From Candidatus Tanganyikabacteria bacterium (lineage in GTDB: Bacteria > Cyanobacteriota > Sericytochromatia > S15B-MN24 > VGJW01), in NCBI GenBank assembly GCA_016867235.1, contig VGJY01000003.1, positions 406 through 64,405 of the forward strand: DNA of 64,000 bases, given 5' to 3'. The translations under genes were made by a program, and so were the position numbers. A model generated the notes under the pieces. The model ran no database searches and was not told the DNA's origin. It was given only the letters and a program-made list of their open reading frames with translations. Each line of letters opens with the position of its first letter. Position 1 is the stretch's first letter. Positions 32,010 through 55,191 of this stretch are shown piece by piece.

Positions 32010-32134
32010 CGGCGCTCAAATGACCTGGCGCCTATCGGACGCAGGCACGGAGGCCTGCGCCACCGATGCAACGGGTGGGGCCGGCCTCCGTGCCGGCCGC
32101 GATGCCGGAGCGAAGTCATCAGAGCCGCGCTATC
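32007..32134. repeat. 128-bp dispersed repeat, copy B (100% identical to 18743..18870), starting within the ACP stop codon
   Basis: Direct sequence comparison. Same nested hairpin (stem GGCACGGAGGCC / GGCCTCCGTGCC; inner loop ACGGAG). Confidence 0.9.
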
Positions 32135-33572
32135 ACAGGGTGCCGCCGCCTCCGCCTGACGGCGCGCTGGCGCTCTCGGCCGGCCGGCCATCCAGGTAGG
32201 AGCGCACGCCAGCGGCGATCGCCCGCGCCAGGACCTGCTGGTAGGCGGGATCGACGAGTTGCCGCTCTTCGGCCGCGTTGGACAGGAAGCCCATCTCGAC
32301 CAGCGTCGCGGGGATGCGATCGTGCCGCAGCACGAAGAGCCGGGCCTGCCGGACTCCCCGGTCCGGCCGGCCGGTGGCGGCCACCAGTCGCTCGTGGACG
32401 GCCCGGGCGAGCGGCAGGCCGGGATCGTGCCGGTAGTAGGTTTCGACGCCCGTTGCCTCGGGCGTCTCGGCCGAATTGCAGTGCAGGCTGATCACGGCGG
32501 CCGGCCCGTGGCTGGCGATCAGCGCTTCCCGGTCGGCCAGCCGCAGCTCGCCGTCGAAGGAGCGCGTCAGCACGGGCTGGAGCCCCTCGGCCCTAAGCTC
32601 CTTCGCGAGGTGGCGGGCCACGCCGAGGGCCACCTGGCTCTCGGACGTCCCGGCGCCGCCCAGGGCACCCGGATCGTAGCCGCCGTGGCCGGCGTCCACC
32701 ACGACCACCGGCCGGCCGGCATCGAGCGCTGGAGCCTGCTCGATGCGCAGCGTCAAGCTCCGGCCGTCGGGGCTGCGGGTCGAGTCGAGGGCCAGGCGCC
32801 CGCCAGCCAGATCGAGGGCGAGCGTCCAGGCTTCCGGCTCGCGGCGCAGGGTGACGCGTTCGACCGCACCCTTCGCCCGCGGGGCCGCCACGGCCAGAGA
32901 GGAGCGGGGAATTCTCACGGTGAGGCGCCGGGGCTCGAGTTCTTCCAGCACCCAGGCCATCAGCGGCTCCCGACCGCGTATCTCGACGGTGGTCGCCCCC
33001 GAGTGCAACCGCCTGATCCGCATCCCGTCGATCACCTGGGGGACCGAAGGCCACGGCACGCTGCGCGTGGCTTCTCGCTCGCCCGACGCCTCCTCGCCGC
33101 TCGCCCAGGCGTGCGACCGCGTGGGGCCGGGCGGCCCGATGAATGCCGCGGGGCTCAGCGGGGCCGGGGGACCGATCGGCTCGCCGTGCCGGCGACCCGG
33201 TCCCGCATCCCCTGCGTCCACCCAGGCAAGCCGCGCCACCAGGCGCCGGCCGCCCTCGATCACGTCGGTGCGCAGGGCGGCGTCGCCGTCCAGATCCAGC
33301 ACGACGCGCAGCGTCCGGCTCTCCGGGTGGCGGGCGATCCTGACCTGCCGCACGCCGCCATGCTCCACCGGGATCAACGTGGGGGCCTGGCGATCGGCCA
33401 GGTCGGCATCCTGCAGATCCAGGATGCGGCGCTCCGGCTCGCGCAGCGTGCTCTGCCGCAGCACGATCGGCCTATCCGCCTCGATGACCAGCTGTCCGTC
33501 GCGCCAGGCCACGCTGCACGAGGCCGGTGTGGAGACGGCAGCCGCCGCAAGGATGGCGAACAAGGCAGACAC
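32133..33572 (-). CDS. N-acetylmuramoyl-L-alanine amidase (AmiC-type, Amidase_3) with N-terminal AMIN-like domains
   Basis: Catalytic domain VVVVDAGHGGYDPGA ... SLHCNS ... TLVEMGFLSN. Signal peptide. Confidence 0.85.
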   Translation of the reverse strand: MSALFAILAAAAVSTPASCSVAWRDGQLVIEADRPIVLRQSTLREPERRILDLQDADLADRQAPTLIPVEHGGVRQVRIARHPESRTLRVVLDLDGDAALRTDVIEGGRRLVARLAWVDAGDAGPGRRHGEPIGPPAPLSPAAFIGPPGPTRSHAWASGEEASGEREATRSVPWPSVPQVIDGMRIRRLHSGATTVEIRGREPLMAWVLEELEPRRLTVRIPRSSLAVAAPRAKGAVERVTLRREPEAWTLALDLAGGRLALDSTRSPDGRSLTLRIEQAPALDAGRPVVVVDAGHGGYDPGALGGAGTSESQVALGVARHLAKELRAEGLQPVLTRSFDGELRLADREALIASHGPAAVISLHCNSAETPEATGVETYYRHDPGLPLARAVHERLVAATGRPDRGVRQARLFVLRHDRIPATLVEMGFLSNAAEERQLVDPAYQQVLARAIAAGVRSYLDGRPAESASAPSGGGGGTL

Positions 33573-33695: not shown

Positions 33696-34670
33696 ATGGC
33701 GCTGAATCACGAACAGTTGATCAAGCTTCCCCAGTTCCAGGGCTTCACGCCCGACGAACTCGACGCGCTCTTCTCCATCGCCAAGCGTGTGGAAGCCAGC
33801 GCCGGCGAGCACATCATCAAGACCGGCGATGCCGCCGACTGCTTCTTCATCGTCGCGGGCGGCAGCCTCGAGGTGCTCGCCGACTCGGGCGGCGGCAAGC
33901 TGATGCCCGTCGCGCAGGTGGGCTCCGGCCAGCTCGTGGGCGAGATGCCGCTGATCTACAACCAGAAGCTGCGCCAGGCGGACATCGTCTGCGCCTCGGA
34001 CTGCAAGCTCCTGCGTTTCGACTACGCCGACTACGAGGAGATCGGCAAGCTGCACCCGACGGTGGCCAAGAAGTTCCGCTCCAACATCGGCAAGATAGTC
34101 GCCTCCCGGGTCTGGGCGGCGCAGGCCGCCACCGCCAAGCCCGGCGCGGGCAAGCCTGGAGCGCCGGCGGCTCCGGCCAGGCCGGTGACCTCCAAGTCGG
34201 CCAACCGCGACGCGATGAAGCGAGCGCAGGTCTTCGCGGGCCTGACCGACGAGGAGTACGAGAAGCTCGAACAGATCGCCCAGCCCTTCCCGGTCGAGCG
34301 CACGCACACGGTCTGCACGGCCGGCGATCCGGCCACGAGCTTCTTCCTCATCACGCGCGGCCAGGTCGAGGTGCAAATAGAGAAGTCCGGGCGCGCCTTC
34401 CCCCTGGCGCGGCTTGGCCCGGGCCAGTGCGTCGGCGAGATGGCGCTCATTTACAAGACCGACAAGCGCTCGGCCACGGTCGTCGCCGTGGACCAGACCC
34501 ACCTGCTGATGTGGGAATTCGAGGACTTCAACCGCCTGATCGCCCACGAGCAGAACATCGGCCGCAAGCTGCGCAACAACCTCGGCCGCGTCGCCGCCTC
34601 CCGCTCCTGGGCCCTGCCCGAAGCCGACGAGGCCAAGAAGATGCAGGCCCGCGGCTCGAGCGACGACTGA
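33696..34670 (+). CDS. Tandem cyclic-nucleotide-binding (cNMP/CAP-family effector) domain protein
   Basis: Two copies of the cNMP-binding signature (...GEMPLIYNQKLRQADIVCA..., ...GEMALIYKTDKRSATVVAV...). No output domain. Confidence 0.8.
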   Translation: MALNHEQLIKLPQFQGFTPDELDALFSIAKRVEASAGEHIIKTGDAADCFFIVAGGSLEVLADSGGGKLMPVAQVGSGQLVGEMPLIYNQKLRQADIVCASDCKLLRFDYADYEEIGKLHPTVAKKFRSNIGKIVASRVWAAQAATAKPGAGKPGAPAAPARPVTSKSANRDAMKRAQVFAGLTDEEYEKLEQIAQPFPVERTHTVCTAGDPATSFFLITRGQVEVQIEKSGRAFPLARLGPGQCVGEMALIYKTDKRSATVVAVDQTHLLMWEFEDFNRLIAHEQNIGRKLRNNLGRVAASRSWALPEADEAKKMQARGSSDD

Positions 34671-34704: not shown

Positions 34705-35310
34705 GTGGACAGGACCGTCACCGAGGAACGCCTGCGAATCGGCTTCCTGCTCGACACGATCTGGTTCGAGATGAAGCACCAGCCCGTACGCTCCAAGGAG
34801 CAGACCCTCAAGCTGCTCGTCGACCTGCTGGCCGCGGAAGGGATCCCGTACGCCATCATCGGCGGCATGGCCCTGCAGGTCCACGTGGCGGATCCGCGGA
34901 CCACGGTGGACGTCGACGTGGCCCTCCTGGCGCGCGAGGACGTCCCGCGCACCGCGCTCGAGGCGCTGGGCTTCAAGCACACCGGCTCCTTCGAGCATTC
35001 CGAGAATTTCCGCAGCCCGGACGGGATCATGGTCCAGTTCAGCGGCGAGCCCGAGTGGCAGGGGGTGGTCCGCCGGGCCGAGATCCATGACGCGTTCGAC
35101 CGGCGCATCCCTTTCATCTCCCCCATCGACCTGGTGCGGGCCAAGCTGCGGGCGGCCGCGGATCCGGGTCGCCGCAGGTCCAAGCGGCTGATCGACGTGG
35201 CCGACATCACGACGCTTCTGGAGGAGCACGCCGACCTCGCGTCGCTCCTGACGGAGGACGAAATGGCGCGCATCGCCCGCCTGCCCGCCGAAATCGGCAG
35301 TCCCCTCTAG
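34705..35310 (+). CDS. Minimal nucleotidyltransferase-fold protein (putative)
   Basis: 201 aa. IIGGMALQVHVADPRTTVDVDVAL fits the GG...[DE]xD pol-beta-type NTase signature. Confidence 0.5.
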   Translation: MDRTVTEERLRIGFLLDTIWFEMKHQPVRSKEQTLKLLVDLLAAEGIPYAIIGGMALQVHVADPRTTVDVDVALLAREDVPRTALEALGFKHTGSFEHSENFRSPDGIMVQFSGEPEWQGVVRRAEIHDAFDRRIPFISPIDLVRAKLRAAADPGRRRSKRLIDVADITTLLEEHADLASLLTEDEMARIARLPAEIGSPL

Positions 35311-36704: not shown

Positions 36705-37469
36705 TCAATCCAGCTTGAAGGCGTCGGGCTCGTGAACGTTGATCTTGATGCTCTCCAGTTGCAGCCGATAGGTAAGCTGCCCCTTCTGGTACATCTCGCG
36801 CACGACCGGAAGGTAGTTTCCGGTATCGATGGCGATCCGCTCGGACTCCACGCCCTTGACCATGAACTTGCTCTTGAGCGAGATCTGCGCGATCGGTCGA
36901 CCCTTGTACTCGCCGCGGCCGACCAGGGCCACCTGGGCCTGCGGATCGAGGAGGGCCTGCATCATCTTGGGCACCGCGGTGTCCGAAAGGCTGTCGCCGC
37001 GGGCGTCGCGCAACCGATCGTCCTGCTCGTCGAGGTTGGTCTTCACCCAGAAGCCGATGAACTTCGTCTTGATGCCCACCTTGGACCCGCCCATCCAGAC
37101 CATCTTGGTGCCGGCGGCGGCCGTCTTGGTGTGCTCCTTGATGAGCAAGGCGGTGGAACTGGGCTTCTGGAACCAGTAATCCAGCTTCGCCGACTCCACG
37201 GCACCCTTGTTGACGTCTTTCACGTAGAGCGTGACGTCGGCGCGGAGATTGGTGTTGCGGGCCCAGACCTCGCCCATCTTCTGGCGCAGCGTCGCGACCT
37301 CCTTGGCCGGATCCGCGCCAGGCTGCGCCGAACCCGTCGCCGGCGTCGTGGGCGCCACGATCTTGAGATCCTTGAGCTTGCCGCCCGGGTCGATGGTCGG
37401 CGCGTTGCTGCCGCAGGCCGTGGCGAGCTGGCCGACCAAGAGCAAGAACGGCAGACTAACGCGCTTCAT
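36705..37469 (-). CDS. Lipoprotein, unknown function (LolA-like size and composition)
   Basis: Signal peptide plus lipobox LATAC(G). Confidence 0.55.
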   Translation of the reverse strand: MKRVSLPFLLLVGQLATACGSNAPTIDPGGKLKDLKIVAPTTPATGSAQPGADPAKEVATLRQKMGEVWARNTNLRADVTLYVKDVNKGAVESAKLDYWFQKPSSTALLIKEHTKTAAAGTKMVWMGGSKVGIKTKFIGFWVKTNLDEQDDRLRDARGDSLSDTAVPKMMQALLDPQAQVALVGRGEYKGRPIAQISLKSKFMVKGVESERIAIDTGNYLPVVREMYQKGQLTYRLQLESIKINVHEPDAFKLD

Positions 37470-37711: not shown

Positions 37712-39085
37712 CTACATATGCGCGACGATCGTCAGGCCGGAGTAGTTGGCGCCGCCGACGATCGGCGTGTTCTTGAGATCGGTGTTGTGCCAGACCCGAT
37801 CGAACTCGCGCTCGCCAAGTTTCTGGTTCGGCCCGTCGATGCTGTCGTGGTAGATGATCTCGCCCTGCTCGTCGTTGTAGCCGATGACCGTCACGTAATG
37901 CGGCACGTCGAACTGCAGCATCACGATCACCGGATGCCCCTGGTCCACGGCCGACTTGAGGTGGTTGATCGTGCCGTTCTTGTAGGCGTCGACCTGCAGG
38001 CCCTTGGCCTTGAGGTAGTTGGTCACGGTGGTGTGGGTCGTGGCCATGTTGAACTTGTTGGACTCGTCGACCACCTGCTGGTAGGTCGGCGCCTGCTGGC
38101 CCTGGTGGTAGTTCAGGACCATCGACATCGCGGCCTGGGCGCAGGTGTTGTCGGGGACGTCCCGCGTGCCCTTCACCGCCGCCCCCTGGAAGAACCAGGG
38201 CACGTTGTCGATGATGCGCGTCCCGTCCGCGTGATCGGAGACCGTGTGCATGCCGCCGCCGGCGTTGCTCGCCACCGTGCGGTGCTCGGCCCCTCCGGCG
38301 CCGCCTCCCCCGCCGTTCCAGGAGAAGGTCTTGCCGTGGCCGTTGTCGTACTGGTAGCTACCGGAAGTGGTCTTCGCGATGCCGGCTCCCTCGTGCACGT
38401 CGATGCCCGACAGGCTCACCCCCGTGCCGCAGCCGGTGAGCGCCGCCGAGCCGATGACGCCGATCAGCGCCGCCGCGACCAGCTTGCCCTGGATGCGCAG
38501 GGCCTCGGCGATGTGGTTGGGCTTGGCCAGGCCGGCCTCCACCAGGATGTCGCCGATTTGCCGCTTGGTGAGCTTCTGGGTCTCGAGGGCGGACTTCAAC
38601 TGGTCGCGGGTGATGACCTTGGACGCGACCAGGATCTCGCCGAGCATGAACCGCACGGCCTTGGCCGAGTTGTAGCTGTGCTCGTGCTGCCAGTCGAGGA
38701 CCGCCGAGAGTTCGTCGGCCGAGATGAGGCCGAGGCGCAGCAGCACCTCGCCCAGCTTCTCGTTGGTCTTCTCCTGCTCGGCCAGCGCGGATTCGAGCTG
38801 GTGCTTGGTGACCTTCTTCGCACGGAGCAGCAGATCGCCCAGCTTGTGGCGCACCGCCGCGTTGTGCTCGTCGGGGGTCTCCCCGTCGTGATGGTGGTAA
38901 TGCAGGACGGCGTTGAGCTCCATCTCGGACACGATGCCCAGCCGCAGCAGGATCTCGCCGAGGCGCTCGTTGGTGGCGCTCTGCTCGGCCAGCGCGCGCT
39001 CGAGGTCGACGGGCGAGATGAACTCGCCCGCGACCAGCACTTCGCCGATCTTGGGCTTGGGAACGAGCGTCGCAGTCGATGCCAT
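37712..39085 (-). CDS. Multidomain protein: three MshEN-type (T2SSE_N-like, putative c-di-GMP-binding) domains plus TM helix plus Gly-rich linker plus C39/papain-like cysteine peptidase domain
   Basis: Six 24-residue motifs fitting xLGxxLLxxGxIxxxxLxxALxxQ (KIGEVLVAGEFISPVDLERALAEQ, RLGEILLRLGIVSEMELNAVL, KLGDLLLRAKKVTKHQLESALAEQ, ...). TM segment LVAAALIGVIGSAALTGCG. C-terminal domain with Cys (NTCAQAAMSMVLNYHQG) and His (HYVTVIGYNDEQGEIIYHDS). Confidence 0.7.
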   Translation of the reverse strand: MASTATLVPKPKIGEVLVAGEFISPVDLERALAEQSATNERLGEILLRLGIVSEMELNAVLHYHHHDGETPDEHNAAVRHKLGDLLLRAKKVTKHQLESALAEQEKTNEKLGEVLLRLGLISADELSAVLDWQHEHSYNSAKAVRFMLGEILVASKVITRDQLKSALETQKLTKRQIGDILVEAGLAKPNHIAEALRIQGKLVAAALIGVIGSAALTGCGTGVSLSGIDVHEGAGIAKTTSGSYQYDNGHGKTFSWNGGGGGAGGAEHRTVASNAGGGMHTVSDHADGTRIIDNVPWFFQGAAVKGTRDVPDNTCAQAAMSMVLNYHQGQQAPTYQQVVDESNKFNMATTHTTVTNYLKAKGLQVDAYKNGTINHLKSAVDQGHPVIVMLQFDVPHYVTVIGYNDEQGEIIYHDSIDGPNQKLGEREFDRVWHNTDLKNTPIVGGANYSGLTIVAHM

Positions 39086-39087
39086 GG

Positions 39088-40149
39088 TTATCTAGCGCCT
39101 CCAGGGAAGTACGCGAATCCGGATGTGGAACCCTGGGGGGCGGCAAGCGACGCGAACACGATGCCACGTGCGCCGGCTGCCGGATATATACCCCAGGCCA
39201 GGGCCCGCCCGCCGTCGGGCAAGAACTGTAAAGTCGGATTTACATTGTCGTCGCCGCCGCTGGTCAGCGCCTCGGGGGCCGACCAGGCGTCCCCCCGCGT
39301 GGCGAGGGCCAGTTGCAGCGGGTCGTCCGGGCCGCCGCGGCGCCAGCCGAAGGCGAGCGCGATGCGCCCGTTGCGATCGACGGCGAGCGCCGGATTGATG
39401 GCCTGCCCGGACAGGCCCAGCGACTTCGGTGCCGACCAGGCGCCCGAGGGGCCGCGGGAGACCTCGTAGAGTTGCGCCGAGCGGTGCGCCACGACATGGA
39501 GGCGCCCGTTGGCCGAGGCGATCGCGGGATCGCCCAGATGCGTGGCCGCCACCCGCGCCTCGTACCAGTTGTGGCCGTCGGCGCTCTCGGCGACCACCAG
39601 GCCGTCGGAACTGCGGTAGGTGAGCGCCCAGCCATGCGGCGTCGCCGTCACGGCCGGCTCGGAGACCATCGCGCCCGGCACGTTCAGGCGCTCGGGAGCG
39701 CTCCACCCCGTACCGGTCTGATCGCAGACGTACAACGCCCATGTGGGCACCTCGCGGTTGGAGGCGAAGATCACGTGGAAGCCCCGGCTGTCTGCAAACA
39801 ACGCCGGGTCGATGTCCGAGAGGGCGCCAGGCTGGACCGCCGCCGCGGGCGTCCAGGAGGCGCCGTCCCTGCTGGTCGCGAAGTAGATATGCTTGTTGCC
39901 GAGCTTCTCGGAACCGTACGCCACGCCCCAGGTGCCGTCGGCGGCCCGGTACAGCGACGGCGTCTTGGGGCCCTCGGGACCGAACGAGACGGCCGCCGCC
40001 TGCTGCCCGCCGACCGTCGGCAAGCTCGCGGGCGGCCTGGTGCCGGGTCCCTGACCGGGAGCGCCGGGCCCGAACGGCGCCTCGGCGCCGCAAGCCGACA
40101 GCGCCGCCGTGGCCACGGCGGCGATGAAGATGCGGCGAAACAGAGACAT
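39088..40149 (-). CDS. Lipoprotein with BNR/Asp-box beta-propeller (sialidase-like fold)
   Basis: Lipobox LSACG. Asp-box motifs SRDGASWT, SADGHNWY. Confidence 0.6.
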   Translation of the reverse strand: MSLFRRIFIAAVATAALSACGAEAPFGPGAPGQGPGTRPPASLPTVGGQQAAAVSFGPEGPKTPSLYRAADGTWGVAYGSEKLGNKHIYFATSRDGASWTPAAAVQPGALSDIDPALFADSRGFHVIFASNREVPTWALYVCDQTGTGWSAPERLNVPGAMVSEPAVTATPHGWALTYRSSDGLVVAESADGHNWYEARVAATHLGDPAIASANGRLHVVAHRSAQLYEVSRGPSGAWSAPKSLGLSGQAINPALAVDRNGRIALAFGWRRGGPDDPLQLALATRGDAWSAPEALTSGGDDNVNPTLQFLPDGGRALAWGIYPAAGARGIVFASLAAPQGSTSGFAYFPGGAR

Positions 40150-46062: not shown

Positions 46063-46701
46063 ATGCACTACGAGATAGGCCAAGAGGTAACACTGAGGCT
46101 CGGGGACCGGGTCCTCAAGGGCAAGATCACCGACATGACGGTCTCGTCGGCCGTGATGTCCTTTCCCGTGCCGTTCGAACTGCCGCCCTCCGGCATGGTG
46201 GTCTGGCCGGACGGCATGGTCGCCCGGGCCGACATGTCCCAGGCTTCGCCCTCGACTAACGTGATGATCAAGCTGCCCTTCCCCACCCGGTCCGAGGGCG
46301 CGCGCCTGCCGGCCCCGCTGCCCGCGGCCGAGAACAAGGCCACCGACCACCGCCGCACGGTGCGCATCGACGTGTCACTGCCCCTCACGGTCGCCGACTT
46401 CACCGGCACGCGGCGGCTGATGGACGCCAGGACGCTCAATATGTCCTCGGGCGGCGCCCTGGTGCTGTGCGAGTCCAACCTGATCGTGGGGCGGGACTAC
46501 ACCCTCAAGCTCGAACTGCTGGCCGAACTCATCGCGCTAAAGGCGCGGGTCGTACGCCGCCTCGGCCGCAACACCTACGCATTTCGCTTCCTGGCCGACT
46601 CGGACACGGGCCACGGCCTGATGCGCAAGGTCTTCATGCTGCTGCGCGGTTCCGAGTCCTCGTCCGGCAAGCGACCTTCATGGAATTTCAGGAGAGGCTA
46701 G
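46063..46701 (+). CDS. PilZ-domain protein (putative c-di-GMP receptor)
   Basis: RRTVRIDVSLPLTV (RxxxR) ... TLNMSSGGALV (D/NxSxGG). Confidence 0.6.
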   Translation: MHYEIGQEVTLRLGDRVLKGKITDMTVSSAVMSFPVPFELPPSGMVVWPDGMVARADMSQASPSTNVMIKLPFPTRSEGARLPAPLPAAENKATDHRRTVRIDVSLPLTVADFTGTRRLMDARTLNMSSGGALVLCESNLIVGRDYTLKLELLAELIALKARVVRRLGRNTYAFRFLADSDTGHGLMRKVFMLLRGSESSSGKRPSWNFRRG

Positions 46702-47501
46702 TCGCGGCGACCGGGGCCGGCGATCCCGAGACCGGCGCGGTCGAGACGCCGGCAAACGGGCAGCCCGAGGCCGAGCCCATGCGCAAGCCGGGCGAGATGC
46801 CGCTCACCGACCACCTCGAGGAACTGCGGTGGCGCATCATCAAGAGCGCGGGTGCCCTCGCCGCGGGCTTCGGCGTCTGCTTCGCGTTGCACCAGCAGAT
46901 CATCACCCTGCTGCTGGCCCCGGCTCACCGGGCCGCCATCGTGCACGGCAACCTCGTATTCACCGCGCCGGCCGAGTACTTCGTCGCCGCCCTCAAGGTG
47001 TCTTTCTTCGCCGGGCTCTTCCTCTCGCTGCCCGTGCTCCTCTACCAGGTCATGGCGTTCGTCGCCCCCGGCCTCACGAATCGGGAGCGGCGCTGGGTGG
47101 TGCCCATGTCCGTCGCGGCGGCGGTGCTCTTCGCGGCGGGCGCCGCGTTCAGCTATCTGGCGCTGCTGCCCATCGGCTTCAAGTTCCTGGTGGGCTTCGC
47201 CCCGCAGGACGTGGTGCAGCCCATGCTGTCCATCGGCGAGGTGCTGTCGTTTTCGACGCTCTTCCTCTTCGCCACCGGCGGAGTGTTCCAGTTGCCCCTG
47301 GTGTTGCTGGCCATGTCGCTGGTGGGCATCGTTTCCTCGGGGCAACTGGCTCGCTTCCGCCGGATGGCCATCGTCCTGGCCTTCCTCGCCGGTGCCCTGC
47401 TGTCGCCGTCTCCCGACGTGTTCAGCCAGGGCCTGCTCGCCGCGGCCTTGCTCGGCCTCTACGAGATCAGCATCGTGCTGATGAAGGTGGCGCGGCGCTG
47501 A
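46680..47501 (+). CDS. tatC: Twin-arginine translocase subunit TatC
   Basis: MPLTDHLEELRWRIIKS... six-TM TatC pattern. Overlaps the PilZ gene by 22 nt. Confidence 0.85.
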   Translation: MEFQERLVAATGAGDPETGAVETPANGQPEAEPMRKPGEMPLTDHLEELRWRIIKSAGALAAGFGVCFALHQQIITLLLAPAHRAAIVHGNLVFTAPAEYFVAALKVSFFAGLFLSLPVLLYQVMAFVAPGLTNRERRWVVPMSVAAAVLFAAGAAFSYLALLPIGFKFLVGFAPQDVVQPMLSIGEVLSFSTLFLFATGGVFQLPLVLLAMSLVGIVSSGQLARFRRMAIVLAFLAGALLSPSPDVFSQGLLAAALLGLYEISIVLMKVARR

Positions 47502-49432: not shown

Positions 49433-51406
49433 CTATTCCAGCTGCTCGCGCGGCGGCACGCCGACCTGGTTGCGGCCGTTCTGCTTGGCGTGGTACAGCG
49501 CCTCGTCGGCCACGTGGATGAGCGCCTCCGTGGACGGCCCGTGCACCGGGTAGGTCGAGAAGCCGAAGCTCGCCGTGATGGTGCGGTCGGGCAGCAGTTC
49601 CTGGTCGGCGAACGGAAACTCCGCGACCCCCAGGCGCAGCTTCTCGGCGACCTGCCAGGCGCCTTCGTAGCCGGTCTCGGGCAGGATCACGGCGAATTCC
49701 TCGCCGCCGAAGCGCGCCACGATGTCCACCTTGCGCGTCTGGTCGCGCAGGAAGGCCGCGGTTTGCTTGAGCACGGTATCCCCCGCGAGGTGGCCGAGGT
49801 AGTCGTTGCAGATCTTGAAGTGGTCGATATCCAGGATGATAAGCGAGAAAGGCCTGTTGTAGCGATAGCCCTTCTGCTGCTCCTCGTGGAGGCGCTGGTT
49901 GAAGTAGCGGCGGTTGAAGACGCCGGTCAGGCCGTCGGTGATGGATCGTTCGTGCTCGCGCTGCCACTGGATGGCGTTGAACACCGCCGACGCCGTGTGC
50001 GCCACGAGGGTCTCGACCATGTCCCGCCCGGTCGTCTCGGTCTCGCTCTCGGTAGCCACGACGACCAGGCCCAGGCAGGCCTGCTGCACCTTGAGCGGGA
50101 AGAGCACGACCTTCCCGGCCTCGGAGAACGGCGTGCCCTCGAGGGCCTCGCGCGGCAGATCCAGCGAGGGCGGGTAGCCGGTCTTGTCCAGGAAGTAGAG
50201 CCACTGGTCGGCCGGCTTGAAGCCCTGGGTGCTCGACCCGGCCGCGAACGTCCAGCCTTCGATGCCGGCGAGGTAGACGTCTACCCAGTGGACGGGCTGC
50301 ATGAAGTGGGGCAGGTGCGAGACCAGTTCCTTGCAGGCGACGTGCATGTCCAGGGTCTTGCCGACCTCGCGGGTGGCCTTGGTCAGGTCGCGGAGCTTGT
50401 CGACCAGGGCCGCGACGCGGTTGCGCTCCTGGTGGGCCTCGAAGTACAGCCGGCTGGTCAGCAGCGCGCCGGTGGCGGCCTGGGCGAGATCGGCCAGGGT
50501 CTCGAGTTCCGCCGACGTGAAGAGGCGAGGTTGCCGGCTGCCCACCAGGAGAACGCCCAGTTCTTCCCGCTGCGTGAGGAGCGGCACGGCCATCGCGGCC
50601 AGGAGGCCGTGCTTGCCCAGGCCGGCCGGCGGTTCGCCGAGGGCCGCCAGGTTGGGGATGACCATCGGCTTGCCCTCTTCGAGCACGTCGGCCAGGAAGC
50701 CCGCCTCGGAGAGGGGGACCGTCGGTGCGACCTCCTGGATGCCGCCCTTGCGCAGGATGTCCCGCAGCGAGCCCTGCTTGGGCGGATACACAGCCAGATC
50801 CTCCACCAGGCGCAGGCCCCCGGGCTCGCGGTGGTAGAGGCAGGCGTACTGGGCGCCGGTGGCCTGGGCCACGATGGTGCAGATGTTCTGGGAGAGCTGG
50901 TTGAGGTCGTAGGCGTTGTTGATGTTGAGGGTGAGAAGTTGCAGCGCGTGGAGCTTCCGGGCGACCTCGCCCATCATCAGGTCGGCGCGGATGGCCTTGC
51001 GGCCGAAGGCGCTCGCCGCCAGGCCCGCGGCCACCATGTGGGCCGCCGTCTCCCACTCGCCGGCCACCACCTCGGGCGCGAAGAAGATCCCGCCCAGCGG
51101 CCGCGGCACCGGCAGGGCCACCGGCAGCCACATACGCCCGTCCTCGTCGGCCAGGGGGGCCAGGTCCCGGTCGCCGTAGGACAGCAGCAGCCCGGCGAAG
51201 TGCGCCTCCACCTCGGGCGAGCCGGCAAACGGCCGCCATGGCCGGGAGCCGTCCTCGCGGAAGGCGATGGCGCAATCGGTCTTGCCCAGGCCCTCGCCCC
51301 AGATCGCCGCCGCCCCGCGCGCGAACTCCGCGAGATCCTCCGCCTCCCGCCACAGCTTGGCGATCGGCTCCAGGACCCGACGGGTCAGCGCCTCGGATAG
51401 AGGCAT
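49433..51406 (-). CDS. Diguanylate cyclase with tandem N-terminal GAF domains (GAF-GAF-GGDEF)
   Basis: 657 aa. Active-site RFGGEEF, upstream RYNRPFSLIILDIDHFK. Two GAF-like regions. Confidence 0.85.
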   Translation of the reverse strand: MPLSEALTRRVLEPIAKLWREAEDLAEFARGAAAIWGEGLGKTDCAIAFREDGSRPWRPFAGSPEVEAHFAGLLLSYGDRDLAPLADEDGRMWLPVALPVPRPLGGIFFAPEVVAGEWETAAHMVAAGLAASAFGRKAIRADLMMGEVARKLHALQLLTLNINNAYDLNQLSQNICTIVAQATGAQYACLYHREPGGLRLVEDLAVYPPKQGSLRDILRKGGIQEVAPTVPLSEAGFLADVLEEGKPMVIPNLAALGEPPAGLGKHGLLAAMAVPLLTQREELGVLLVGSRQPRLFTSAELETLADLAQAATGALLTSRLYFEAHQERNRVAALVDKLRDLTKATREVGKTLDMHVACKELVSHLPHFMQPVHWVDVYLAGIEGWTFAAGSSTQGFKPADQWLYFLDKTGYPPSLDLPREALEGTPFSEAGKVVLFPLKVQQACLGLVVVATESETETTGRDMVETLVAHTASAVFNAIQWQREHERSITDGLTGVFNRRYFNQRLHEEQQKGYRYNRPFSLIILDIDHFKICNDYLGHLAGDTVLKQTAAFLRDQTRKVDIVARFGGEEFAVILPETGYEGAWQVAEKLRLGVAEFPFADQELLPDRTITASFGFSTYPVHGPSTEALIHVADEALYHAKQNGRNQVGVPPREQLE

Positions 51407-51431: not shown

Positions 51432-52013
51432 CTACTTGTTGAAGGTCTCCAGCACCAGTTGCGAAAGAGACCGCAATGTATCGGATACCCCCAAACCGGT
51501 CACTGCCACCGCTTCATGCGCCGGAACGGCGTTTTTGTTGAGTTCCCGTTCGAGATCGACGACCGGCACGGCACCCGGAATGTCCCGCTTGTTGTACTGC
51601 ATCACCCACGGCAGGCCGCCGAGGGAGAGGCTGTAGTCCTCGAGGTTCGCGGCGAGATCCTCCATGCTCTCCAGGTTCGCGCTCCAGCGCGCCGGGGAGG
51701 AATCGGCCACGAAGACCAGGCCGTCCACGCCGGAGAGGATGGACTTGCGCGAGTTGACGTACTGGACCTGGCCGGGGACGGTGTAGAGCTGGAAGCGCAC
51801 GTCGAACCCCTGGATCTTGCCCACCTCCAGCGGCATCAGGTCGAAGAAGATGGTCCGCTCCGTCTCGGTCGCCAGGTTCAGCAGATCGCCGCGCATGTCC
51901 GGGTCGATGGAGTGGTGGAGCCATTCGAGGTTGGTCGTCTTGCCGCAGAACCCCGGCCCGTAGTACACGAGCTTGCAGAGGATTTCTTTCTTCCCGAAGT
52001 TGATGATCGGCAC
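51432..52013 (-). CDS. mglA: MglA, Ras-like polarity/motility GTPase
   Basis: Near-collinear match to Myxococcus/Thermus MglA (INFGKKEILCKLVYYGPGFCGKTTNL ... TETERTIFFDLMP ... LYTVPGQVQY ... VMQYNKRDIP). Confidence 0.9.
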   Translation of the reverse strand: MPIINFGKKEILCKLVYYGPGFCGKTTNLEWLHHSIDPDMRGDLLNLATETERTIFFDLMPLEVGKIQGFDVRFQLYTVPGQVQYVNSRKSILSGVDGLVFVADSSPARWSANLESMEDLAANLEDYSLSLGGLPWVMQYNKRDIPGAVPVVDLERELNKNAVPAHEAVAVTGLGVSDTLRSLSQLVLETFNK

Positions 52014-52124: not shown

Positions 52125-52622
52125 CTAGAAGTTCCCCAGCGCGTCGTCGATGCTCGAGGCATCGAGCAGGCCGCCCTGCTGGACGGGCGCGCGCTGCTGC
52201 CGGGCCGACGACATCAGCATCGCCAGGCGCCCCGCGGCCGTCTTGAGCGGGACGTCCACCTGCGATGCCAGGCGTTCCGACGGGAAGGTCGCCACGAGCA
52301 GATCGTCGGTCTCGAGCAGGATCAGGGCCGTGTAGCTGTGCGGCCCCTTCTGCATCAGCTCGCGGATGGCGTACTCGCCCATGAGGCCCGAGAGGGTCTT
52401 GAGGCTCTTGAAGATGCCGCCGACCAGGGCGCCCACCGCCGGGTGCGCGGTCCGGCCGCCGCCCTTGGCCGCGAGCGTCAGGCCGCTGCGCTCGACCAGG
52501 GCCGCCGAATCGGCGCCGCCCTCGCGCAGCAGGCCGTCCAGCGCGCCGTCGAGTTCGGCTTGCAGTTCGGCCGTGACGACCAGGTTGGTCAACAGGTCGT
52601 GGGGAGTGCCTTGAGCGTCCAC
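52125..52622 (-). CDS. mglB: MglB, Roadblock/LC7-domain GAP of MglA
   Basis: 165 aa with roadblock-like core (SAALVERSGLTLAAKG ... ALILLETDDLLVATF). Immediately upstream of mglA in the canonical mglBA order. Confidence 0.7.
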   Translation of the reverse strand: MDAQGTPHDLLTNLVVTAELQAELDGALDGLLREGGADSAALVERSGLTLAAKGGGRTAHPAVGALVGGIFKSLKTLSGLMGEYAIRELMQKGPHSYTALILLETDDLLVATFPSERLASQVDVPLKTAAGRLAMLMSSARQQRAPVQQGGLLDASSIDDALGNF

Positions 52623-52901: not shown

Positions 52902-54014
52902 TTGAAGCAAATGTGGATCTGGGAGCGACCAGAGTGGCCGACCTTCCGGTGGGACGCGGCCGCGCTTTCGGGCCCGCTCGGCAGCGCACGCCTTGCGCAG
53001 GGTAAGATGCTCGGGGCCATGCGGTTGTTCGACCCTGCCTCGAGCGCGGAGGCCGCTGCCGAGATCCTGGTCGAGGATGGTTTTGCCACCAGCGCCATCG
53101 AAGGCGAGCACCTCGATCCGGCCCGCTTGCGCTCGTCGGTGGCGCGGCACCTTGGCCTGCCGGCCGGCGGCTTGCCCTCCCCGTCGCCGGAGGGGGAGGG
53201 CCTGATCCAGGTGCTGCTGGACGCGACCGGGCGGCACGACGAGCCGCTGACGATCTCGCGCCTTTGCGCCTGGCAGGCCGCGCTGTTTCCCGGCGGGCGC
53301 TCGGGCCTCGCGCGGATCCGCGCGGGGGAGCTGCGCGGCGAATCGCCGATGCGCGTGGTGTCCGGCCGGCCGGAGCGCGAGCGCATCCATTTCGAGGCGC
53401 CGCCTCGCGCCGCCCTGGCATCGGAGTTGTCGCGCTTCCTTGATTGGTTCGGCCAGCGGGATCCGGGCAGGGATGGCCTTGTCCGGGCCGGGCTCGCGCA
53501 CCTGTGGTTCGTCACGATCCACCCGTTCGAGGACGGGAATGGCCGCCTCGCCAGGGCGATCACCGACATGGCATTGTCGCAGGACGAGGGGCGGCCGTTC
53601 CGCGCCTTCAGTCTCTCGGCGCAGATCTTGCGCGAGCGGGACGCCTACTACGAGATCCTCGAGCGCACGCAGCGTTCGGATCTCGAAGTCACGGCCTGGC
53701 TGGGATGGTTCCTCGCACAGGTGGCATCGGCTGCCGAGGCATCCGAAGCGACGATTGCCAGGGTCCTGGGAAAGGCGCGCTTCTGGCTCAAGCATCAGGG
53801 CACGCCGCTCAACGACCGGCAACGTAAGGTCCTGAACCGTCTTCTGGACGCAGGCCCGGGCGGCTTCGCCGGGGGCCTCAACACGCGCAAGTACGTGGGC
53901 ATGACGCGGATCAGCCGCGCCACGGCTTACCGCGAATTGACCGACATGGTTGCCAAGGGCTGCCTGCGGCAAGCGGGCGCAGGCCGATCGGTGAAATACG
54001 AGGCGGCCTGGTGA
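52902..54014 (+). CDS. fic: Fic-family AMPylase, class II (N-terminal inhibitory helix), with C-terminal wHTH-like domain
   Basis: Canonical Fic motif HPFEDGNGRLAR. Inhibitory motif TSAIEG ((S/T)xxxE(G/N)) about 115 residues upstream. Confidence 0.85.
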   Translation: MKQMWIWERPEWPTFRWDAAALSGPLGSARLAQGKMLGAMRLFDPASSAEAAAEILVEDGFATSAIEGEHLDPARLRSSVARHLGLPAGGLPSPSPEGEGLIQVLLDATGRHDEPLTISRLCAWQAALFPGGRSGLARIRAGELRGESPMRVVSGRPERERIHFEAPPRAALASELSRFLDWFGQRDPGRDGLVRAGLAHLWFVTIHPFEDGNGRLARAITDMALSQDEGRPFRAFSLSAQILRERDAYYEILERTQRSDLEVTAWLGWFLAQVASAAEASEATIARVLGKARFWLKHQGTPLNDRQRKVLNRLLDAGPGGFAGGLNTRKYVGMTRISRATAYRELTDMVAKGCLRQAGAGRSVKYEAAW

Positions 54015-54135: not shown

Positions 54136-55191
54136 CTATTGGGCTGTTTGCGCGGCGTACGCGAAGACCTGCGACGCCTGCGAGACGGCGCCCAGGTCCA
54201 CCAGGCTGTCGTCGAGAGCCTTGACGGTCTCCTCGCCGCCCAGGCCGAACACGTTGGCGCTCGTCCTGGCCAGCTGCAGGACCCCGAACGCCGCTGTGGC
54301 ATACAGGCCGAGCGTGTTGCCCCACTCGGCGGTCGATTGCGTGACGTTGCCGGGCTGCTCGCCCTTGCCCAGCGCCTCCATGGCCACCCTGGACTCCTTG
54401 AAGAAGCTCTCGGCCCGGTCGGGGTCCGGGTTCGACATCCCGAGCCACTTCATCACCGGCTTGACGTACTTGAAGTTGCGGACCAGGTTGTCGAGGCTCT
54501 TTTGCACCTTCTGCGCGGCGCTCTGCATCTGGTAGGTCACCACGAAGGGCCGGGTGGCCAGATCGGCGGCCGCCCGCTGCACGTCGGGGGTGGCGTACTC
54601 GTTGACCGCCCAGTTGCCGTCGGCGGCCTTGTAACTCTGGTGCAGGCCGCGCATGCGCTTGAAGAGGATGACGGCTTCGGCGGTGGCCGCGTCGAACTGC
54701 CCGGTGGCGTACGACAGGTAGCCCAGGCGCACCAGGTGCCGCTGCAGTTCGTGCACCTGCCCGCCCATGCCGGGCAGGCTGGGCCCGACCGTGCCGCTGC
54801 GCGAATAGCCCTTGACCTCCTGCGTGAAGTTCCAGACGTTGTCGAGATCGACCTGCAGGCGGTACCGCGCCGCCGTCGCCCGCCAGTCGCCCAGTTGCAG
54901 CACGCGGAACGCCCGGGCGAACGCCGCCGCGATGCCGGCGAAGAGCGCCTTGATGGCCTCGAGCACGCCGCTGCCGGGCGACCCCTGTATCGGCTGCGCC
55001 GGGGGTCCCCCGTAGGCCGGAGGCGGCCCGTAGGGCGGAGGCGATCCGTAGGCCGGCTGGCCGAAGCCGGGGCCGGCAACCGGGGGGTTCCAGCCTGGGG
55101 TCGGCGCGGGGTAGTAAGCCGGCGCCTGGCTGGCACCCCGGGCTTGACCCGGGAGTGACCAACTATTGGAAGCGGGGACTCCTAACAGCAC
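54136..55191 (-). CDS. Pro/Gly-rich protein with peptidoglycan-binding (PG_binding_1-like) domain
   Basis: N-terminal PPPYGPPPAYGGPP repeats. VHELQRHLVRLGYLSYATGQFDAATAEAVILFKRMRGL matches the PGBD1 pattern. Confidence 0.55.
   Translation of the reverse strand: MLLGVPASNSWSLPGQARGASQAPAYYPAPTPGWNPPVAGPGFGQPAYGSPPPYGPPPAYGGPPAQPIQGSPGSGVLEAIKALFAGIAAAFARAFRVLQLGDWRATAARYRLQVDLDNVWNFTQEVKGYSRSGTVGPSLPGMGGQVHELQRHLVRLGYLSYATGQFDAATAEAVILFKRMRGLHQSYKAADGNWAVNEYATPDVQRAAADLATRPFVVTYQMQSAAQKVQKSLDNLVRNFKYVKPVMKWLGMSNPDPDRAESFFKESRVAMEALGKGEQPGNVTQSTAEWGNTLGLYATAAFGVLQLARTSANVFGLGGEETVKALDDSLVDLGAVSQASQVFAYAAQTAQ

Follow-up and report, generated by a model that had tools for sequence, protein, structure and literature searches.

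A putative lipid-anchored C39-type peptidase of Sericytochromatia with three MshEN_N-type c-di-GMP modules ahead of its predicted signal peptide

Introduction

How might cytoplasmic c-di-GMP act on a peptidase that is predicted to lie on the other side of the membrane? The question is raised by a gene in the stretch of DNA analysed here (64,000 nucleotides from Candidatus Tanganyikabacteria bacterium, contig VGJY01000003.1; hereafter the window), whose product carries MshEN-type repeats at its N terminus and a C39-like peptidase domain at its C terminus. A preliminary description of the locus saw in it three MshEN domains connected by one transmembrane helix and a poly-Gly linker to an extracytoplasmic peptidase, and proposed a conformational switch operating across the membrane. 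c-di-GMP is known to act through transcription factors, through riboswitches, through cytoplasmic enzymes and secretion ATPases that bear PilZ or MshEN domains, and through inside-out signalling of the LapD type. Almost nothing published on c-di-GMP in Sericytochromatia, the non-photosynthetic sister lineage of cyanobacteria, was found in the open-access literature.

Results

Three MshEN_N units and a C39-type peptidase

An MshEN_N subdomain is a four-helix unit of 53 residues, in which two 24-residue motifs are linked by a spacer of 5 residues (Wang et al. 2016, PMC5013675). Its key contacts are R-L-G at motif positions 1-3, a turn Gly and L...L..Q, and MshEN receptors bind c-di-GMP with affinities from nanomolar to micromolar. 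In the query protein, six 24-mers begin at residues 12, 41, 81, 110, 147 and 176 and are paired by the 5-residue spacers SATNE, EKTNE and KLTKR into three such units (Table 1). The NCBIfam model NF053729 ('c-di-GMP_motif, MshE-related') matched the protein in three stretches with a score of 158.4 bits (cut-off 38, E 2.5e-47), the top-scoring stretch being residues 81-131 in unit 2. No match to PF05157 (T2SSE_N) was obtained for the query protein at E<=1 in Pfam, and the units are just 13-16 residues apart, which places the protein in the published 'MshEN_N only' class. The six 24-mers and three domains reported earlier were thus recovered, although the domains are MshEN_N subdomains only and no motif follows the strict consensus; carrying the MshEN_N motif, and with no PF05157 match, the repeats are not the generic T2SSE_N folds that had been considered as an alternative. 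The accompanying premise that MshEN is normally the N terminus of T2SS/T4P ATPases proved too narrow, since its partners are many, including Peptidase_M23 in the combination MshEN_N-Peptidase_M23, and are not confined to those ATPases (Wang et al. 2016, PMC5013675). The sequence comparisons confirm the N-terminal 200 residues as three MshEN_N-type c-di-GMP modules, with binding predicted.

The peptidase half gave Pfam matches to C39_2, C39 and C70, among which PF13529 (Peptidase_C39_2) scored 52.3 bits against a cut-off of 24, the match covering residues 294-415 and all but the ends of the profile (2-142 of 143 positions). A Foldseek search against the PDB returned Alr0975, LahT150 (6MPZ), 3ERV and ComA (3K8U), solved structures that share just 14-21% identity with the domain. 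Its best viral fold matches were cyanophage endolysins, and C39_2 is counted among endolysin catalytic domains. The strings NTCAQAAMSMVLNY, HYVTVIGY and YHDS are present in the domain, and in a profile alignment Q300, C315, H396 and D414 fall on ComA Q11, C17, H96 and D112, all four being invariant in 39 homologues. The C39-like Cys...His domain of the preliminary description is thereby substantiated, its dyad aligning with C17 and H96 of ComA. These results support the C-terminal domain as a papain-like C39-type peptidase with a complete Gln/Cys/His/Asp set and predicted activity. In C39 peptidases (MEROPS clan CA) the Cys and His, with the Asp, are catalytic and the Gln belongs to the oxyanion hole. 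Its position C-terminal to the signal peptide implies that it is extracytoplasmic. No ABC transporter domain was found in the query protein or neighbouring genes, and no conserved double-glycine leader candidate was found nearby.

Table 1. Features of the peptidase gene and of nearby genes in the window
Feature	Position	Strand	Description
Whole CDS	37712..39085	-	457 aa, ATG start; (MshEN_N)x3, lipoprotein-type signal peptide, linker/beta region, Peptidase_C39_2
MshEN_N unit 1	38894..39052	-	Residues 12-64: KIGEVLVAGEFISPVDLERALAEQ-SATNE-RLGEILLRLGIVSEMELNAVLHYH; alone matches MshE 5HTL, E 6e-5
MshEN_N unit 2	38687..38845	-	Residues 81-133: KLGDLLLRAKKVTKHQLESALAEQ-EKTNE-KLGEVLLRLGLISADELSAVLDWQ; 5HTL E 8e-6, PilF GSPII-B c-di-GMP domain E 6e-6
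MshEN_N unit 3	38489..38647	-	Residues 147-199: MLGEILVASKVITRDQLKSALETQ-KLTKR-QIGDILVEAGLAKPNHIAEALRIQ; 5HTL E 1e-4, PilF 304-358 (whole-chain E 9e-13)
Signal-peptide-like segment	38429..38488	-	Residues 200-219: G-K, h-region LVAAALIGVIGSAAL, lipobox T-G-C; Cys219 = 38429-38431
Post-Cys tether	38207..38428	-	Residues 220-293: short beta strands and Gly-rich linker 254-279, low confidence (AF2 secondary structure, pLDDT)
Papain-like Peptidase_C39_2	37715..38206	-	Residues 294-457; Pfam, Foldseek, profile alignment
Catalytic codons	Q300 38186-38188; C315 38141-38143; H396 37898-37900; D414 37844-37846	-	
Operon partner	39088..40149	-	353-aa lipoprotein, weak BNR_2/sialidase-like (beta-propeller) signature; stop codon 6 nt before peptidase-gene ATG
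Downstream lipoprotein	36705..37469	-	254 aa, signal peptide ...LATAC; co-linear in closer relatives only
GAF-GGDEF protein	49433-51406	-	
PilZ protein	46063-46701	+	

A lipobox between the two halves

The segment earlier taken for a transmembrane helix is instead an h-region of ~15 residues (202-216) that ends in the lipobox LTGC at Cys219. Gly218 and Cys219 are invariant in the 39 sequences compared, and the core pattern of PS51257 is matched by 38/39 family members, compared to 3% of shuffles. With its Cys at residue 219, the lipobox breaks the PS51257 positional rule, which calls for an N-terminal signal peptide with the Cys in about the first 15-35 residues. There are only two Cys residues in the query, one in the lipobox and the other catalytic. 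The predicted topology of the fusion is N-in, C-out, in agreement with the orientation assumed in the preliminary description.

In the AF2 model, a helix runs unbroken from unit 3 into the h-region (residues 189-216), and the junction motif [EN]AL[KR]IQ[SGA]K[LM] ranks among the two best-conserved stretches in the family. The spacing from the Lys to the Cys is 16-17 in the fused family, compared to 13-21 in standalone homologues. The conserved junction, fixed spacing and continuous helix would fit a helix-coupled, uncleaved anchor equally well.

Beyond the Cys, a motif C-x-x-P-x-V-P-x-Q is common to most fused forms and to standalone homologues, after which the tether differs in length and sequence among homologues. 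The poly-Gly linker noted previously is indeed present, as the Gly-rich stretch in the tether, but is specific to the subclade of the query and is no feature of the family.

Homologues and the fate of the precursor

A search of other genomes for the same fusion, as had been suggested, recovered the same continuous architecture in ~55 distinct proteins and in ~20 species-level Sericytochromatia genomes, in independent assemblies and at 40-84% identity. Homologous lipoproteins carry 0, 2, 3 or 4 MshEN_N units, and in 8/9 of the fused forms (2-4 units) the last half-motif lies 42 aa ahead of the lipobox Cys. The standalone homologues came from an exhaustive HMMER scan, a word-indexed search with the mature part having yielded 3 hits from 266 candidates; their lipobox Cys lies at residue 17-28. 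Two of them (P0131 and P0127) have classical N-terminal signal peptides of the signal peptidase II type; their starts are preceded by in-frame stops, at distances of 12 and 42 nt, and the genes before them are unrelated. A further candidate, P0134, is doubtful as a standalone form, since its cluster mate P0272 is longer and includes MshEN sequence, pointing to a start-site or assembly variant. The existence of plain lipoprotein homologues and of forms with two or four units indicates that the MshEN array extends a lipoprotein signal peptide at its N terminus.

The block of three MshEN_N units and an h-region also precedes three unrelated passengers (a beta-helix and two unknown domains) in Nitrospirota and Deltaproteobacteria, and the blocks ahead of these non-C39 passengers end in a lipobox or in AxA-like sites. 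In Ala-rich sequence, the A-x-A regex applied to the deltaproteobacterial relatives is a crude indicator of signal peptidase I sites, and the sites it marks are suggestive only. Several homologues of the query are misnamed 'N4 adsorption protein B', owing to their similarity to the MshEN domain of NfrB.

We infer that Cys219 is the lipidation site and that the precursor would be cut there by signal peptidase II, on the assumption that a signal peptide with a 200-aa n-region is processed. The invariant lipobox and the standalone homologous lipoproteins make it probable that the two halves are cut apart by this enzyme. Such a cut would part the sensor from the peptidase; this speaks against a simple allosteric switch and favours a control exerted on export, maturation or placement. 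The conformational transmembrane switch proposed earlier is thereby undermined for the mature protein. The evidence suggests, but does not prove, that an envelope enzyme is controlled by c-di-GMP at the level of its export or maturation. We give roughly even chances to the reading that the gene encodes the precursor of a lipid-anchored C39_2 peptidase whose signal peptide is extended by three c-di-GMP-binding MshEN_N units, and whose export or maturation is controlled at the precursor stage. The precursor would be inserted N-in, Cys219 would be lipidated by Lgt, and cleavage before Cys219 by LspA would separate sensor and enzyme. Cytoplasmic c-di-GMP would act on the precursor, setting the occurrence, timing or site of the export of the peptidase, of its maturation or of its release from the inner membrane, and would not tune the mature enzyme allosterically.

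A possible but rather unlikely alternative is that the segment is an uncleaved signal anchor. The protein would then be a single-pass N-in/C-out receptor-enzyme, in which c-di-GMP on the array, and especially on unit 3, switches the peptidase by helix movement or oligomerisation; its description as a one-polypeptide analogue of LapD/LapG inside-out signalling would be just as tentative. The continuity of the predicted helix and the conservation of the junction motif speak for such an anchor, as do the fixed K-to-Cys spacing and 42-aa register, which are tighter than in ordinary signal peptides, and the precedent of LapD/LapG, where a periplasmic Cys protease is under the control of cytoplasmic c-di-GMP (PMC3032545). 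Processing is favoured by the invariant lipobox and by the plain signal peptidase II lipoprotein homologues with the same post-Cys motif, and the relatives with AxA-like sites resemble cleavable type I signal peptides. The long, variable and poorly ordered linker, including its poly-Gly stretch, would be a poor conduit for conformational signals. Moreover, a stable membrane span would be expected to be longer than the ~15 residues of this h-region.

Binding competence of the units

Both the extended-signal-peptide reading and the signal anchor presuppose that the array binds c-di-GMP. The Gly at position 3 of the motif, equivalent to MshE Gly11 and Gly40, is invariant in all six motifs, including those of unit 1, and mutation of these Gly residues in MshE abolishes c-di-GMP binding (Wang et al. 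2016, PMC5013675). L17, L21 and Q24 are kept in nearly all of the 39 homologues. At motif position 1, the six 24-mers of the query have K, R, K, K, M and Q, respectively. In unit 1, this position is K/R in most homologues. Unit 3 is without a basic residue there in either half: across the family its first half has M/L and its second half always Q, although R/K is kept at this position in non-C39 relatives. The first half of unit 2 (unit 2a) has K/R where MshE has Ile19. The strict published motif is matched by 0/6 of the 24-mers and the relaxed regex of Wang et al. by 1/6 (residues 110-133), the others being off at 1-2 positions. Given the lack of a basic position 1 in unit 3 and the K/R at the Ile19 equivalent in unit 2a, binding competence is uncertain unit by unit.

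These departures from the motif, both the low match counts and the substitutions in units 2a and 3 (the former at a core position), would be accounted for if the repeats were non-binding and served in the cytoplasm for oligomerisation, docking or membrane targeting, for instance to site lipoprotein export, the protein being no c-di-GMP effector. Loss of binding through changes in key residues has been noted for XpsE and similar homologues (Wang et al. 2016, PMC5013675). We nevertheless consider this reading improbable, as the binding-critical Gly and the Leu/Gln contacts are conserved, R/K is retained at position 1 in units 1 and 2, the NF053729 score is four times its cut-off, and the genome has c-di-GMP turnover and other receptors.

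Gene integrity and neighbourhood

The source organism is uncultured and its genome is a metagenome-assembled genome. The GC3 of the open reading frame is 0.95, a value usual for genuine genes of this window (~69% GC), its codon usage is uniform, and a GGAGG ribosome-binding motif precedes the ATG by 12 nt. NCBI has an identical protein under the name 'C39 family peptidase [Candidatus Sericytochromatia bacterium]', and an independent Logan contig carries an identical gene. Between residue 190 and the h-region of the query, no ATG, GTG or TTG was found (L196 and L202 are encoded by CTG), ruling out an internal start that would yield a plain lipoprotein from this gene, as there is no usable start codon ahead of the h-region. 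That a mis-assembly, a joining frameshift or a wrong start has merged a separate MshEN protein with an ordinary lipoprotein, as the metagenomic source and the apparent start-site or assembly variant P0134 might suggest, is hardly credible: recurrence of the architecture in the ~55 proteins effectively refutes an assembly or annotation artefact, and the absence of internal starts, the uniform codon usage and the Logan copy also stand against it.

Wherever the sequence of a Sericytochromatia locus reaches far enough upstream, the BNR-like lipoprotein gene is the next gene on that side and has the same orientation as the peptidase gene. Its product has an invariant lipobox Cys20, a Pfam BNR_2 match (E 3.7e-7) under the gathering score, and weak PDB profile matches to sialidases; its single-sequence model had a pLDDT of 42. 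As a double-glycine substrate it was rejected, since the GG near residue 48 in the neighbour of the query is not conserved. The 254-aa downstream lipoprotein is found in five further loci (L006-L010) at 40-43% identity, and gave no Pfam, NCBIfam or PDB match. No promoter or terminator was found by a minus-strand scan of the intervals separating the three lipoprotein genes. Following its proposed export, the mature peptidase would work in the envelope alongside the BNR-like lipoprotein. Cell wall or matrix material would be its most plausible target, hints in this direction being the cyanophage endolysin matches, the place of C39_2 among endolysin catalytic domains and the published MshEN_N-Peptidase_M23 combination.

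The GGDEF and PilZ genes mentioned in the preliminary description are real, but lie 7-10 kb away and are not operon partners. A role as functional partners is not supported, since both belong to a block of housekeeping genes, thiL-recA-rny-ymdB ... hpf-PilZ-tatC, whose synteny is repeated in another locus (L002).

Discussion

If the extended-signal-peptide reading is true, a receptor array in the n-region of a signal peptide would follow a different logic from the known outputs of c-di-GMP, in that the precursor of one exported enzyme would read the messenger. A broader and more doubtful proposal, though one we take seriously, is that MshEN_N arrays are portable c-di-GMP-sensing extensions of cleavable Sec/lipoprotein signal peptides, through which the messenger would gate the export, lipoprotein maturation or membrane release of certain enzymes of the envelope. 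The output would then be exerted on the signal peptide, and not on activity, transcription or a secretion ATPase. Should binding and gating be confirmed, the gene would offer a compact one-gene model of second-messenger control over export or lipoprotein maturation, a predicted c-di-GMP effector for Sericytochromatia, and a rule to spot effectors now hidden under the annotations 'C39 family peptidase', 'hypothetical protein' or the erroneous 'N4 adsorption protein B'. Were binding to fail, the gene would still be a clean case of domain accretion onto a signal peptide.

Vibrio cholerae MshE (5HTL, a co-crystal with c-di-GMP; PMC5013675) has the same 24-5-24 four-helix unit with Gly, Leu and Gln contacts, and each unit of the query aligns with it. 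Unlike MshE, the query has three tandem copies, is without the MshEN_C/T2SSE_N part and the ATPase, and has K, M or Q in place of the MshE R at position 1 in 5/6 motifs, its c-di-GMP binding being predicted. Three successive MshEN (GSPII) units are also present in the T4P ATPase PilF of Thermus thermophilus (6F8L), the best PDB match of the N-terminal half, whose c-di-GMP domains, like those of MshE, are matched by each unit of the query. In PilF, however, the units are complete domains of ~140 aa in an ATPase that is cytoplasmic and hexameric, whereas the query has 53-aa units before a signal peptide.

The peptidase domain resembles both C39 domains (ComA-PEP 3K8U, LahT150 6MPZ and PCAT1) and C39_2 proteins (Bacillus anthracis 3ERV and phage endolysins) in being papain-like with Gln/Cys/His/Asp. 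In contrast to the bacteriocin-processing C39 domains, which cleave double-glycine leader peptides, it is not the N-terminal cytoplasmic part of an ABC exporter, and is predicted to be extracytoplasmic and lipid-anchored.

In the LapD/LapG system of Pseudomonas fluorescens, the cell surface is remodelled by a periplasmic cysteine protease under the control of cytoplasmic c-di-GMP (PMC3032545, PMC3032553). LapD is a separate protein, a degenerate GGDEF-EAL/HAMP dimer with two transmembrane helices, whereas the query is one polypeptide; LapG is a soluble calcium-dependent protease of another family, controlled by sequestration, and its resemblance to the query is functional only. No LapD-like (HAMP and degenerate GGDEF-EAL) or LapG (DUF920/BTLCP) domains were found in the query protein or its neighbours.

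Like the query, the Escherichia coli glycosyltransferase NfrB (PMC8669469) is a non-ATPase envelope enzyme with an MshEN-type receptor, in this case C-terminal. The MshEN domain of NfrB is cytoplasmic, beside the catalytic domain, and activates it directly, whereas the sensor and enzyme of the query are predicted to be on opposite sides of the membrane.

No description of the MshEN_N/lipoprotein-C39 architecture was found in the open-access literature, the nearest precedent being the table entry MshEN_N-Peptidase_M23, which is the NlpD of Acaryochloris marina, AM1_1153 (Supplementary Table 4, Wang et al. 2016, PMC5013675). We found no other published combination of MshEN_N with an envelope peptidase, and this one, too, comes from the cyanobacterial lineage. 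It differs from the query in having a single MshEN_N and a metallopeptidase of the M23 family, and the entry comes without an analysis of topology, lipobox or function. The NlpD of E. coli is a lipoprotein, and AM1_1153 may therefore be the same kind of signal-peptide extension.

Identification and distribution of the fusion protein

The open reading frame originally proposed at 37712-39085 on the minus strand was recovered exactly. It encodes 457 residues, comprising three MshEN_N units, a hydrophobic segment with a lipobox, a tether and a peptidase domain. Its GC3 of 0.95 is what genuine genes show in this ~69% GC window; GGAGG lies 12 nt upstream of the ATG, and the stop codon of the upstream gene 6 nt before it. 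Public databases contain an identical protein under the title 'MAG: C39 family peptidase [Candidatus Sericytochromatia bacterium]'. Homologues are named 'C39 family peptidase', 'hypothetical protein' or, wrongly, 'N4 adsorption protein B'. The full MshEN_N-lipobox-C39 architecture was found in about 55 distinct proteins from about 20 species-representative genomes, essentially all Sericytochromatia, the non-photosynthetic sister class of cyanobacteria, with 'Tanganyikabacteria' included.

Peptidase domain and candidate substrate

The C-terminal half matched Pfam Peptidase_C39_2 (52 bits, cut-off 24), and C39 and C70 more weakly. An AlphaFold2 model built from an alignment of 39 sequences had a mean pLDDT of 75 (about 90 within the peptidase domain), and the modelled domain resembled papain-like structures, namely Nostoc Alr0975, the LahT and ComA C39 domains and B. 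anthracis 3ERV (E 5e-4 to 1e-3, TM up to 0.77 on the target). The domain profile aligned Q300, C315, H396 and D414 with Q11, C17, H96 and D112 of ComA-PEP, in which C17/H96/D112 form the catalytic triad (PMC5481443), and none of the four aligned residues varies across the family. The Cys...His arrangement of a C39-like peptidase is thus upheld: the dyad, whose loss on alignment had been named beforehand as evidence against it, is present, and the peptidase looks catalytically competent.

Among viral fold matches cyanophage endolysins were best (E down to 6e-7), beating every PDB match; C39_2 is counted among the catalytic domains of endolysins, and the single published precedent joins MshEN_N to an NlpD-type M23 peptidase (PMC5013675). 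On these observations, remodelling of the cell wall or matrix is a better candidate function than leader cleavage of the bacteriocin type, which is also unlikely since neither an ABC transporter nor a GG-leader gene was found near the target.

Lipobox and proposed processing of the precursor

The preliminary description placed a transmembrane helix between the two halves. The segment is not a plain transmembrane helix, which alters the interpretation: a hydrophobic run of ~15 residues (202-216), preceded by Lys201, is followed by T-G-C219, and the lipobox residues G218 and C219 do not vary in the family. The PROSITE lipoprotein core pattern was present in 38 of 39 homologues, compared to 3% of query shuffles, and C219 and the catalytic residue are the only cysteines of the query. 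When the peptidase domain was used in an exhaustive HMMER scan, it recovered close homologues that are 205-250 aa long, have no MshEN_N and start with a classical lipoprotein signal peptide (for example MKRLTINPLFIVLIALILFNSC followed by GAPTVPIQ); for two of these standalone forms, P0131 and P0127, the DNA has in-frame stops 12 and 42 nt upstream, and the upstream genes are unrelated. The post-Cys motif C-x-x-P-x-V-P-x-Q is common to the standalone and most fused forms, with CGTGVSLSG in its place in the query subclade. Homologues with two or four MshEN_N units were also found, and the distance from the start of the last half-motif to the lipobox Cys is exactly 42 residues in eight of nine fused forms, independent of unit count. 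Most simply, these sequences are read as those of a mature lipoprotein whose signal peptide has gained the MshEN_N array in its n-region.

The precursor would be inserted N-in with the array in the cytoplasm, Cys219 would be lipidated, and signal peptidase II would take off the signal peptide, so that a lipid-anchored peptidase of ~24 kDa, flexibly tethered, would no longer be connected to the sensor. Because cleavage would separate the two, c-di-GMP would act on the precursor only; it might govern whether the targeting/translocation machinery recognises the h-region, whether Lgt or LspA gains access, or whether the protein leaves the inner membrane. We give this cleaved lipoprotein, controlled solely as a precursor, an even chance of being correct. 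The model first proposed, in which the single-pass protein stays uncleaved and signals inside-out as LapD does, retains genuine support from a predicted helix that is continuous over residues 189-216, from the strong conservation of the junction and from the fixed spacing; we consider it rather unlikely.

The (MshEN_N)3-plus-h-region block (~215 residues) also aligns as a single unit, at 30-35% identity, before at least three other passenger domains: a right-handed beta-helix (P0084), an unknown domain of ~170 aa (P0096, P0098, P0103) and another of ~130 aa (P0057 type). These non-C39 carriers (proteins P0057-P0120, loci L026-L029) belong to Nitrospirota, Deltaproteobacteria (Geomonas) and others. 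A lipobox, often with a Gly-rich tether after it, occurs in 13 of 64 such carriers; most others have an h-region of 13-16 residues and then a small-residue c-region like signal peptidase I sites, as judged by a crude regular expression. The block in these relatives terminates in a lipobox or an AxA-like site.

MshEN_N array and predicted c-di-GMP binding

The N-terminal half contains six 24-residue motifs (starting at residues 12, 41, 81, 110, 147 and 176), joined into pairs by 5-residue spacers. Of the three MshEN domains initially claimed, the three units stand, with a 24-5-24 layout identical to the 53-residue c-di-GMP-binding MshEN_N unit of V. cholerae MshE (PMC5013675); they are MshEN_N subdomains only, since a Pfam search gave no T2SSE_N match. 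MshEN_N-only proteins were already recognised as a class in the 2016 MshEN paper (PMC5013675). NCBIfam NF053729 ('c-di-GMP_motif, MshE-related') scored 158 bits (cut-off 38) over three stretches, and the top PDB match was the triple-MshEN tandem of T. thermophilus PilF. Searched separately, each unit matched the MshE-c-di-GMP co-crystal chain 5HTL (E 6e-5, 8e-6 and 1e-4) as well as the c-di-GMP-binding domains of PilF.

None of the six motifs matches the strict published consensus, and only motif 110-133 matches the authors' relaxed regular expression. All 39 homologues have Gly at position 3 of each of the six motifs, and the contacting Leu and Gln positions are retained; MshE mutants at G11 and G40 lose c-di-GMP binding (PMC5013675). 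In the same homologues, the R/K expected in unit 3 is replaced by M/L and by an invariant Q, and the first half of unit 2 has K/R at the core position equivalent to Ile19. Judged by these residues, c-di-GMP binding is likely for units 1 and 2 and uncertain for unit 3. We rate a purely structural, non-binding role of the repeats as unlikely.

A His-rich insert between units 1 and 2, HYHHHDGETPDEH (38864-38902, minus strand; residues 62-74), is restricted to the query and its nearest relatives P0002 and P0003, and aligned spuriously with His-tags of PDB chains. The Pfam models DUF2949 (a cyanobacterial family of 56 aa), DUF4388/PatA_N and FumaraseC_C all match the repeats (residues 84-205), which suggests that part of what they model is helical hairpins of the MshEN_N type; DUF2949 may itself correspond to a standalone MshEN_N.

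Genomic neighbourhood

Wherever upstream sequence suffices, the same-strand upstream neighbour is a lipoprotein of ~305-353 aa with a weak BNR/sialidase-like signature (pLDDT 42 in single-sequence structure prediction for the 353-aa protein of the window). It adjoins the three-unit fusion throughout Sericytochromatia and is absent at the standalone forms and a two-unit paralogue. A second lipoprotein, without a match in Pfam, NCBIfam or PDB, lies downstream with rsmG in closer relatives as well, co-linear at 40-43% identity (L006-L010). Further upstream are thiL, divergent, and then recA, rny and ymdB.

Genes in the window around the fusion gene
Feature	Position	Strand	Remark
Adenylate/guanylate cyclase-AAA_16-TPR protein, 1343 aa	3815-7846	-	second-messenger component
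AmiC-like cell-wall amidase (AMIN + Amidase_3)	32133-33572	-	4 kb from target
Protein with two cNMP-binding domains	33696-34670	+	second-messenger component, 3 kb from target
AbiEii-like nucleotidyltransferase	34705-35310	+	type IV toxin-antitoxin family
Lipoprotein, 254 aa	36705-37469	-	signal peptide ...LATAC; between target and rsmG
BNR_2/sialidase-like lipoprotein, 353 aa	39088-40149	-	upstream neighbour
PilZ-domain protein, 212 aa	46063-46701	+	between hpf and tatC
GAF-GGDEF gene	49433-51406	-
Arf-like small GTPase	51432-52013	-	beside GAF-GGDEF
Roadblock/LC7 protein	52125-52622	-	beside Arf-like GTPase
DUF4172-Fic/DOC protein	52902-54014	+
PG_binding_1 protein	54136-55191
Subtilase (Peptidase_S8)	61349-62629	-	fervidolysin-like N-terminal prodomain

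The GGDEF cyclase and PilZ receptor noted earlier are both real genes; they belong to a housekeeping block instead of sharing an operon with the target. The tatC frame as listed (46467-47501) overlaps the PilZ gene, its 5' end probably being over-extended, and the hpf-PilZ-tatC order is also present in locus L002. The Arf-like GTPase and Roadblock/LC7 pair is like MglA/MglB; a similar Arf, Roadblock and PatA_N (DUF4388) cluster adjoins a two-unit C39 paralogue in L005. With the amidase and the PG_binding_1 protein, the neighbourhood contains further cell-wall remodelling genes. The AbiEii-like and Fic/DOC genes, among housekeeping genes, are possible toxin or defence genes. An S8 gene similar to the subtilase (4084-5508 in L042) lies directly downstream of a standalone C39 lipoprotein, which may be coincidence.

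Comparison with known systems

MshEN_N, the C39-like papain fold and the lipobox are each already known; neither an MshEN-C39 fusion nor MshEN arrays before signal peptides are described in the searchable literature. Control of a periplasmic cysteine protease by c-di-GMP is an established concept from LapD/LapG. The present system would be alike in concept, but none of the LapD/LapG components is present at the target. If demonstrated, c-di-GMP-gated export or maturation would be a new mode of c-di-GMP output.
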